Origin: a virus
Lineage: Duplodnaviria > Caudoviricetes
IMG/VR virus record: IMGVR_UViG_3300020438_000050
Coordinates: 1 to 55,830 of that record
Length of the DNA stretch: 55,830 bases
Direction: 5' to 3' (one strand)
Below the pieces are notes generated by a model, which was given only the letters and a program-made list of their open reading frames with translations, was not told the DNA's origin and ran no database searches. Shown here piece by piece: positions 53,674-55,234 of this stretch. A program made the position numbers and the translations under genes. Numbering within the stretch: position 1 is the first letter of the stretch; each line of letters begins with the position of its first letter.

Positions 53674-54135
53674 TTATGCGTCTTCTGTGAAGTCTGTATC
53701 GTCTGCACCGACTAATGTGTTGTCGTCGCCTGCTTCTTCAACTTGTGCTGCGCCATCTGCTGTAGATGTACTAAAGTTCCATGCTACACTTTTTCCGTCA
53801 AATGCGTTTGCACCTGTTCCACTTGGAGCAGATAAAGTTGCTTTACGTCCAGCAATTTTACTTACTGTGTATGTTTCACCGTCATCCATTTTGAATGCAA
53901 TAGCCATTTCACCTTCTGCTAGTGCTGCTGGCAATTTGCCAGTTGTTAGCGTACAAGTAAATAATCCAGCTGTGCCAATTTCTTCACATACGAATCTTTT
54001 TGATCCTTTTTGCTTTACAATATAACCTTCTTTGACTGCTGTGCCGTTGTGAAAGTTTACTTTAATTTCGTTGCCGCCGGCTGTAGGTCCTACGCCTGCT
54101 TTTCCGAATAATCTTTTGTTTAGTGGTCTTCCCAT
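53674..54135 (-). CDS. Hypothetical, probably abundant virion protein
   Basis: 153 aa, SD AGGAG, own late promoter (54230-54237) and 3' hairpin. Confidence 0.65.
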   Translation of the reverse strand: MGRPLNKRLFGKAGVGPTAGGNEIKVNFHNGTAVKEGYIVKQKGSKRFVCEEIGTAGLFTCTLTTGKLPAALAEGEMAIAFKMDDGETYTVSKIAGRKATLSAPSGTGANAFDGKSVAWNFSTSTADGAAQVEEAGDDNTLVGADDTDFTEDA

Positions 54136-54149
54136 TTTGTTTCTCCTAT

Positions 54150-54225
54150 TTTAGAAGTCCGATGCACGTTCTAGGTGCTACGCTGTGGTGCAGCATAAGT
54201 CCGCCTTGCGGCACACTATCTGACA
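54150..54225 (-). ncRNA. Candidate four-way-junction plus pseudoknot 5' leader
   Basis: Four contiguous helices found by hand, one with a GCAA tetraloop; loop TAGAA is complementary to the downstream TTCTA. Confidence 0.55.
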
Positions 54226-54243
54226 ATAGTATTTATCACAAAC

Positions 54244-54277
54244 AAAAAAAGCCCGACACAATTAAGTATCGAGCTTT
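54244..54277 (-). terminator. Rho-independent terminator
   Basis: Minus strand AAAGCTCGA...TCGGGCTTT running into a T7 tract. Confidence 0.7.
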
Positions 54278-54490
54278 TAATAATAATGTGATAGGTTGGA
54301 ATTTGAGAATACCAACAACCTCCTAGTAGCTCTCGCCATATTCGGAGGAGCCTAGCATCGGATAGTTACTTCCAAAAACATATCTTTGTATCTCTACACT
54401 CATATGTTGCCACTACAGCTACTAGCCAAGTTGTGTCACTACGCAACACCGTTCCTTGCACTATCTAACTTAGGCCGTCGCCTAACTTAT
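54250..54490 (-). ncRNA. Candidate stand-alone structured RNA (~240 nt)
   Basis: Region without a long ORF, bounded by a sigma70-like promoter and a terminator, containing many helices. Confidence 0.55.
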
Positions 54491-54496
54491 GTATTA

Positions 54497-54524
54497 ACTA
54501 TAACATCATTACAAACAATGTCAA
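54497..54524 (-). promoter_or_regulatory. Sigma70-like promoter
   Basis: TTGACA-16 nt-TATAGT with TGn extended -10; the -35 box overlaps the upstream TGA stop. Confidence 0.65.
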
Positions 54525-55234
54525 CCACTTTTTTTACTTTTTAATCCTTTTTTCCAACCGTTAGTAATAGATTGTGGAAATATTTTTATAGGATGTTGTC
54601 TATCATCTGCATTAATATCGTCTGACTTAGAAAATTTAGACGTTGATATTCTTTCTAAGCACACCGCTTGGGGAGGTTCGCAAACATAAAGCGGAAGTGC
54701 AGTCGGAACCATCATCATTAAATATTGATCTAACCCTTTCTCTATTCCAGTACGTAATGTATCATTCCATAACCACTCAGCAGATTGAGGAGTAATTGCA
54801 TAAGCATGACATCCAATAGATCTTTTTATACGCACAAGATCACTTGCCGGTGCTGGCGGATTGTAGTCTTCTATATTTTTTACACGATGACCAAATGTAA
54901 CCACTGACATATTAGGAATATGTATATCTTTTACATTACCTTTGACAATAGCATCGTGTTCTAGTATAATGCAGGGTTTGCCAATTTCAATAATACGTTT
55001 CCAACACTTAATATGAGATGCATGAGCACAGCAATTTCCCATCCTATTCACATATGTCTTTTGTTTTTTTGCTCCTACTGCCTTAAAAGCTTCTCTAGGT
55101 TGTAAAAATTCTATAGCTTCCATATATTCATATTCAAGGTTTTGATCATCACAAGACCTTGCACACATATCTGCATACTCGACGGATATAGGAACCTGTA
55201 GCCTACGTATAATAATAGCTCTATCTATTTTCAT
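54521..55234 (-). CDS. Glycosyltransferase family 25-like
   Basis: CAHASHIKCWKRII...IILEHDA...GCHAYAITPQSA...LDQYL. Confidence 0.75.
   Translation of the reverse strand: MKIDRAIIIRRLQVPISVEYADMCARSCDDQNLEYEYMEAIEFLQPREAFKAVGAKKQKTYVNRMGNCCAHASHIKCWKRIIEIGKPCIILEHDAIVKGNVKDIHIPNMSVVTFGHRVKNIEDYNPPAPASDLVRIKRSIGCHAYAITPQSAEWLWNDTLRTGIEKGLDQYLMMMVPTALPLYVCEPPQAVCLERISTSKFSKSDDINADDRQHPIKIFPQSITNGWKKGLKSKKSG

Follow-up and report, generated by a model that had tools for sequence, protein, structure and literature searches.

A divergent manA RNA at the head of a probable stand-alone early transcription unit in an uncultured marine T4-like myovirus

The stretch of DNA analysed here (the window) is an IMG/VR virus record of 55,830 nucleotides (nt), IMGVR_UViG_3300020438_000050, which is 17% complete by CheckV. 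On its minus strand, between positions 54240 and 54524, lies a genuine structured non-coding RNA, a divergent copy of the manA family, preceded by a sigma70-like promoter and followed by a predicted intrinsic terminator (Table 1). It is flanked upstream by an open reading frame (ORF) with a glycosyltransferase domain, and downstream by a T4-type late-promoter box, a freshwater-2 RNA and the gene of a conserved hypothetical protein. A first-pass annotation, made from the letters alone, had proposed a stand-alone early RNA at this place, with its own promoter and terminator and a long-range pseudoknot, and had taken it for a new phage small RNA such as a decoy, a protein sponge or a ribozyme. 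Its stand-alone early unit is supported by our analysis, whereas the new small RNA is not, the RNA matching a known family, and the proposed pseudoknot gives way to two other loop–loop pairings. We consider it probable that this manA RNA, from an uncultured marine T4-like myovirus, is a discrete early unit that acts in trans and self-associates through kissing loops.

Table 1. Coordinates of the manA unit, its neighbours, matching RNA-library contigs and the copy in a cultured phage (window positions unless stated otherwise).
Feature	Position	Strand	Remarks
−35 hexamer TTGACA	54519–54524	−	sigma70-like promoter of early type; shares bases with the stop codon of the 237-residue ORF upstream
−10 hexamer TATAGT, TG extension upstream	54497–54502	−	16-nt spacer; promoter matches at 11/12 positions
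manA-family RNA (RF01745), divergent subtype	54285–54485	−	Rfam match and covariation; 5′ hairpin, closing helix, seven inner helices
5′ hairpin TTAGGC GACG GCCTAA	54470–54485	−	helix 1; two-sided changes in 4/6 pairs
Closing helix, 5′ strand GAUAG	54461–54465	−	partner CUAUC at 54294–54290; Rfam alignment
Loop UAGU (L5)	54412–54415	−	pairs with loop ACUA (L7, 54366–54363); kissing-loop pairing by covariation
Loop GAGAG (L8)	54330–54334	−	pairs with loop UUCUC (L9, 54309–54305); second kissing-loop pairing
Intrinsic terminator (predicted)	54240–54278	−	stem 54278–54247, 13 pairs; 6-nt loop; 7 T
GATAAATA late-promoter box, T4-type	54230–54237	−	between terminator and freshwater-2
freshwater-2 RNA (RF02980)	54133–54215	−	65 bits (gathering score 49.9); not part of the manA unit
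Conserved hypothetical protein, 153 residues, late gene	53674–54135	−	downstream of the RNA
ORF of 237 residues, glycosyltransferase family 25 domain	54521–55234	−	PF01755, E 2e-8; upstream of the RNA
Contig of RNA run X1, 241 nt	54228–54468		no differences
Contig of RNA run X2, 193 nt	54292–54484		no differences
Contig of RNA run X4	54283–54468		
Contig of RNA run X8	54294–54505		runs on into a relative's promoter spacer
manA copy of phage Mosig	L202:2501–2724 (MT647606.1, 108161–108384)	−	64 bits

Searched at E-value thresholds, the Rfam model of manA matched the RNA over its full length (model positions 1–192 of 192) with 45.0 bits. The E value was 2e-10 when a 501-nt region was searched and 2.2e-8 with the whole window, on both strands, against all 4227 families. 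Because this match is full-length and significant, the RNA is a divergent copy of a known family and not a new class. The first-pass annotation had itself named manA among the Rfam families to check. All helices could be placed in the full-length alignment, with four non-standard pairs flagged. At gathering thresholds, freshwater-2 was the sole Rfam match in the window. VrrA, Qrr, Yfr10 and several leaders scored 13–23 bits (E of at least 0.13), all on the terminator hairpin, and were rejected as chance matches. ARAGORN found no transfer RNA (tRNA) or transfer-messenger RNA (tmRNA) in the window, in agreement with the first reading.

The window RNA has the helix order of manA (5′ hairpin, closing helix, three-hairpin subdomain), and its loops corresponding to the GUGGUG-type and UAACCA-type loops, which pair in the family, pair as well. 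The habitat, marine T4-like phages, is also shared, and relatives in the same genomic slot exceed the family cut-off. The core differs, reading GAUAGUGCAAGGAA against the consensus GGGAGUGaCUGAAUAA, with UAGU/ACUA in place of UGGU/ACCA. The setting differs too: manA commonly lies in a potential 5′ untranslated region (UTR), whereas here a terminator and a late-promoter box precede the next gene, so that the RNA is not in a simple 5′ UTR. Its original description (Weinberg et al. 2010, PMC2864571) treats manA as an RNA beyond doubt, with a cis-regulatory role, and as a probable riboswitch; copies were found in marine sequences, in T4-like cyanophages and in two gamma-proteobacteria, often within potential 5′ UTRs. 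It is listed alongside the wcaG and abiF RNAs in the S-CREM1 paper (PMC9964418). A full-text literature search returned neither a ligand nor a transcript map reported for manA.

To place the RNA among its relatives, we used the 153-residue protein encoded downstream, which has 337 relatives in viral contigs; 80 of these loci were kept for comparison. By blastn, the candidate RNA is at the same place in 22 of the 80. Rfam scans, run on 32 of the 80 loci, gave manA at 38–48 bits in the 12 blastn-positive loci scanned, and 61.1 bits, above the gathering score, in the same slot of locus L023. A core-pattern scan added at least 120 further stretches. After duplicates and incomplete copies had been discarded, 101 distinct full-length sequences remained; the discarded ones included two fortuitous matches inside coding sequence, copies truncated at contig ends and copies without the 3′ motif (20 listed). 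We refer to the 47 window-like sequences as subtype A and to the 54 that are nearer the Rfam consensus as subtype B. A covariance model built from the subtype A sequences (R1) gave one full-length match in each of 100 sources (100/100), at 157–223 bits in subtype A and 54–81 bits in subtype B, where 54 of 54 loci matched full-length at E < 2e-17. The cultured Pelagibacter phage Mosig EXVC030M carries an unannotated manA copy above the cut-off. Judged by these model scores (L023, Mosig and the R1 matches), the window RNA is continuous with accepted members of manA.

The predicted fold of the window RNA has a minimum free energy (MFE) of −79.9 kcal/mol (z = −3.94), and none of 200 dinucleotide shuffles folds as well. 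We transferred the Rfam consensus structure to the window sequence and counted pairs by alignment column. When the 47 subtype A sequences were aligned with MAFFT (A1), 91.2% of cells were paired and 32 of 52 pairs show two-sided changes (302 cells), compared with 30–43% of cells paired when the 3′ partner was slid by 1–3 columns. A second alignment of 100 sequences (A2), which was fitted to the model and leans towards it, gave 92.0% of cells paired and two-sided changes in 38 of 48 pairs (1055 cells), with 38–47% in the slid controls. The closing helix and the AA/UU pairs show no variation and are uninformative either way, and shuffle controls overstate significance because the sequences are related. 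The column counts strongly support a manA fold that is maintained through compensatory substitution across some 100 distinct relatives.

Several stems drawn in the first-pass annotation are part of this fold, namely the 5′ hairpin and the GTGTTGC/GTGACAC and AACATAT/ATATGTT stems, the latter two with two-sided changes in 5 of 6 and 4 of 5 pairs among the 47 relatives. Its outer GATAGT/ACTATC pairing exists in the letters and not as a conserved structure: it shows no two-sided change, and 10 of 47 sequences are unpaired at the varying column. That column covaries instead with a hairpin loop, ACUA pairing with the UAGU loop and GATAG with CTATC. The closing helix does not vary among the subtype A sequences (47 of 47), and its support therefore comes from the Rfam model; in the set of 100 sequences it is 93.0% paired. 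The 9-base-pair pairing suggested as a pseudoknot, CTAGTAGCT (54425–54417) with AGCTACTAG (54331–54323), lies where it was placed and is not conserved (58.5% and 72.8% of cells paired), nor is the local CTAGGCTC/GAGCTACTAG hairpin said to compete with it (70.2%). The manA helices that compete for the bases of these unconserved pairings have 92.2% and 87.6% of cells paired, the former being CUAGUA/UGCUAG, the competitor of the 9-base-pair pairing. Invariant single-stranded stretches in A1 include GUGCAAGGAA.

Two loop–loop pairings are conserved in place of the proposed pseudoknot. UAGU/ACUA is paired in 95.2% of cells, with AU replaced by GC in four sequences and by GU in five; it corresponds to the element marked ‘pseudoknot?’ in a figure legend of the 2010 description (PMC2864571). 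GAGAG/UUCUC is paired in 83.4%, with two-sided changes in 4 of 5 pairs and variants such as AUGAU/AUCAU, AGGAU/AUCCU and CUGAU/AUCAG. A permutation test on 100 sequences gave small effects: L8–L9 scored 4.70 against 4.35 (0 of 300 permutations as high), L5–L7 3.60 against 3.49 (8 of 300) and L3–L8 3.30 against 2.84 (0 of 300). Loop pairs L5–L8 and L5–L9 also came out as ‘significant’. Since relatedness inflates this test, we judged the loop pairings by the column counts.

What are probably the same loops have been described as assembly contacts. According to a preprint (doi 10.64898/2026.07.01.735769), cryo-electron microscopy of manA RNAs in vitro revealed decamers, octamers and a 60-subunit icosahedral cage, all of them based on pentamers. 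In the 60-mer former, manA_A0F1, the preprint text describes pentamers joined by intermolecular L5–L7′ and L8–L9′ kissing loops, and matching covarying loop pairs are present, by helix count, in the window subtype. For manA_pho34_A767 the same source gives L6–P6′, L5–L7′ and L3–L8′ contacts; in subtype B, ACCA (L3) is complementary to UGGU (L8), like the L3–L8′ interface.

The RNA has the parts of a transcription unit of its own. The sigma70-like promoter stands at a fixed distance from the RNA in 100 of 101 relatives and matches at 10 or more of 12 positions in 95 of 101. In the window, the first hairpin (16 nt) begins about 12 nt past the −10 box. The promoter distance being fixed, transcription probably starts near 54490, some 4–5 nt ahead of this hairpin. 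A strong intrinsic terminator is predicted to begin 7 nt past the Rfam match, and an 11-nt spacer separates it from the closing helix without overlap. A terminator-like hairpin with a T-run follows the RNA in 63 of 101 copies (37 of 47 in subtype A, 26 of 54 in subtype B), starting at most 21 nt from the RNA end in 61 of the 63 and further downstream in two. Terminator sequences are mutually unrelated among the relatives. When 5′ arms were compared with the last 90 nt of the RNA in search of an antiterminator, the longest complementary run averaged 5.69, against 5.86 in shuffled sequence, and none of 61 copies reached p ≤ 0.05. Folding the whole unit at MFE gave the terminator in 57 of 61 copies; in 50 of 61 it coexisted with a closing helix whose 3′ strand was paired. 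With no excess complementarity, and with terminator and manA fold able to coexist, no expression platform is seen.

Two side observations concern the layout downstream of manA. In a subgroup of subtype B (L179, L180, L184, L185, L191, L195, L154 and others), TATAAATA comes 11–12 nt after manA and is followed by a leader of about 80 nt, rich in A and U, and by a gene starting MNTSIAALKRSKSNLD. This gene presumably resembles that of the single-stranded DNA-binding protein gp32. The T4 gene 32 operator has structured and unstructured parts, and the subgroup layout recalls it. In L032, a coding gene runs into the last ~10 nt of the manA RNA (AACCTATCAC), which is then followed by the usual terminator; this looks like a remnant left after deletion or replacement of the RNA gene.

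The next gene downstream has signals of its own. We take the T4 late-promoter consensus to be TATAAATA. The box GATAAATA lies 95–112 nt ahead of the ATG of the 153-residue gene in 37 of 40 distinct relatives, the other three having CTAAATA. ATAAATA occurs 17 times in the window, more rarely than the 32.75 expected by chance, with 15 of the 17 on the minus strand; 14 precede the start of a co-oriented ORF of the structural module by 5–116 nt, two fall within ORFs called from GTG or TTG, close to their starts, and one is not near any such ORF. These sites are likely a set of T4-type late promoters. Freshwater-2 was found in all 32 relatives' loci scanned (32/32). It starts about 15 nt past GATAAATA, carries the ribosome-binding site and runs into the ATG of the 153-residue gene; with the box before it and the ATG after it, it seems to be the leader at the 5′ end of a late mRNA in this phage lineage. 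A full-text literature search on freshwater-2 returned unrelated papers only. Because the manA RNA has a promoter, a terminator and no antiterminator signal, and the next gene has a late promoter and the freshwater-2 leader, the stand-alone early reading is supported at this locus.

Turning to the wider neighbourhood, the window carries T4-like baseplate-wedge, tail-tube and terminase genes by Pfam and PHROGs searches, and among the neighbouring proteins these three and the glycosyltransferase family 25 domain were the only ones named. The terminase is closest, at 53% identity, to those of jumbo phages like Pseudomonas phage PA5oct, a match that does not indicate the host. In the cultured-phage collection searched, neither the 1.7-kb region (blastn) nor the 153-residue protein (tblastn) found a match, and the lineage of the window is without an isolate there. 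The 153-residue protein has 1330 relatives at roughly 80–90% identity, and wherever a name is given it is ‘hypothetical’. Upstream of its gene, 43 distinct regions comprise 22 with a manA-like RNA, two with tRNAs and 19 with neither. The tRNA genes in the manA slot, confirmed by ARAGORN, are Trp, Gln and Cys at L021:2156–2384 and Gly at L009:2290–2363, the last with its own TTGACA/TATTAT promoter and terminator. Like these tRNAs, the window RNA is a small structured RNA of a T4-like phage in that slot; it differs from them in lacking a tRNA or tmRNA fold, in being three times as long and in giving no sign of a role in translation. As a side observation, many relatives (L008, L011, L021, L023, L049, L051, L062 and others, at about 1800–2000) carry a glutamine riboswitch aptamer (RF01739, 42–51 bits, gathering score 35) a few hundred bases ahead of the manA slot, with none in the window.

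Part of the stretch is present in 11 RNA-recorded runs among the matches listed. Four of these, marine metatranscriptome runs from four studies, were compared with the window; in all of them (4/4), the matching contigs are short, e.g. 193–241 nt, are confined to 54228–54505 and reach neither flanking ORF (Table 1), although parts without cover carry no weight. In run X4, word depth is 54–120 over the RNA and 2–14 in the flanks; it was not used as an expression level, as it may reflect many strains collapsed onto one contig. The same run holds a 285-nt contig of depth 105 that joins 54320 to 54452, skipping 131 nt of the RNA, which may come from a rearranged relative or be an assembly artefact.

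A number of points weigh against reading this RNA as a self-associating stand-alone manA unit. The window RNA falls short of the manA gathering score of 55.2 bits; as all 13 window-like sequences tested score 38–48 bits, the Rfam threshold misses the whole subtype. The relatives were gathered with a pattern specific to one sublineage, and the 101 were drawn from the matches listed. Moreover, 38 of the 101 lack a terminator, so that a longer early transcript begins with the RNA; most of these are subtype B copies with the layout of TATAAATA and a gp32-like gene described above. In Mosig, a TTGACA-17-TATATT promoter is present and a terminator absent, and the RNA ends 24 nt before the start codon of a putative rubrerythrin gene, with an annotated single-stranded DNA-binding protein gene next. 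Given these copies and the 5′-UTR position in Mosig, manA is not always stand-alone; what appears invariant among these copies, from promoter placement, is that an early transcript has the RNA at its extreme 5′ end, with varying content downstream. As to assembly, the L5, L7, L8 and L9 numbering was obtained by counting helices from the 5′ end, and covariation cannot separate intramolecular from intermolecular pairing. The preprint oligomers formed in vitro at high RNA concentration and 10 mM Mg, and the preprint keeps the label of putative cis-regulatory element for manA (10.64898/2026.07.01.735769). Finally, assembled contigs record presence in RNA libraries and not ends, strand or level; DNA carry-over is possible in metatranscriptomes, and contig ends may mark strain divergence.

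The arrangement of promoter, structured RNA, terminator and gene is also the usual order of a riboswitch, and manA is treated as probably cis-regulatory and as a riboswitch candidate by both Rfam and Weinberg et al. (2010, PMC2864571). In such a scheme manA would sense a metabolite, and the terminator stem would gate early read-through into the 153-residue and structural genes; the terminator-less RNAs ahead of genes in relatives fit it as well. We regard this as unlikely, since the terminator stands clear of the closing helix, coexists with the manA fold in most MFE folds, is unconserved in sequence and has a 5′ arm without excess complementarity to the RNA, while the downstream gene has a late promoter and conserved leader of its own and dispenses with any upstream manA in 19 of its 43 distinct upstream regions. 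At this locus, the evidence favours a stand-alone early gene over a riboswitch.

The same stand-alone unit would serve equally for an RNA that works in trans as a monomer, a protein sponge or decoy as first proposed, or an mRNA-pairing small RNA, and the invariant single-stranded GUGCAAGGAA of this highly structured molecule could be a protein-binding or tertiary site. No partner is known, however, and two covarying loop–loop pairings, which the preprint presents as intermolecular contacts (10.64898/2026.07.01.735769), would be left unexplained, so we hold the monomer to be about as improbable as the riboswitch. Doubt is greater still for a 5′-terminal stability or processing module that guards against 5′-end-dependent decay, with terminator-flanked copies as by-products of gene shuffling. 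It would account for the sole invariant of context, a position 4–5 nt after a sigma70-type start (100 of 101), and for the varied content downstream, be it a terminator, a late promoter with a gp32-like gene or a rubrerythrin gene; yet a nine-helix fold of ~200 nt with conserved loop–loop pairings exceeds the need, and in 63 of 101 copies the unit ends at a terminator, leaving nothing to protect. Very improbable, lastly, is a role as the message for a 26-residue peptide. The ORF noted in the first pass (54403–54323) exists, with an ATG start and, as was said then, no ribosome-binding site, but only 12 of 47 relatives keep its 26 codons, 13 stop after five and 10 lack the start codon, having AAG in its place. 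Substitutions track base pairing and not codons, and the RNA is non-coding.

We therefore return to the discrete, self-associating manA RNA as the probable explanation. Host RNA polymerase would transcribe an RNA of ~240–250 nt early in infection, and the terminator would insulate the late structural gene from the early unit, so that the RNA would act in trans and not as a switch of its neighbour. As suggested by the preprint together with the loop covariation, the RNA may self-associate via UAGU/ACUA and GAGAG/UUCUC into pentamer-based closed oligomers, which could serve during infection as a scaffold or as a particle that sequesters something. On this evidence, such self-association by way of the two kissing-loop pairs is the most likely mode of action. 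ROOL and GOLLD, large phage- or prophage-associated RNAs of 500–800 nt, form RNA-only multimers. They are likewise structured non-coding RNAs of mobile elements without a known partner, with closed homo-oligomers reported; they differ in unrelated sequence and fold, the window RNA being ~200 nt.

More tentatively, and in our view with the odds against it, manA in this widespread, uncultured lineage of marine T4-like phages may be no riboswitch at all but an early gene devoted to a self-assembling RNA particle, its copies joined by the L5–L7 and L8–L9 kissing loops into pentamers and then trans-acting closed shells that are possibly of the 60-mer cage type. This would call for many copies of the ~240-nt RNA per infected cell, and the shells might enclose or sequester, for example, a host factor. 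If true, this would be the first viral RNA cage with a defined gene, promoter and terminator.

For 16 years manA has been filed as a probable cis-regulatory element and an orphan riboswitch candidate. The accessible text of the preprint (10.64898/2026.07.01.735769) is silent on its expression, and the present analysis supplies the genomic context for one large sublineage: a sigma70-type start, a predicted terminator in about three-fifths of the distinct copies, a slot sometimes taken by tRNA genes, and a neighbour with a late promoter. This context makes the idea of manA as a free, trans-acting, self-assembling RNA directly testable.

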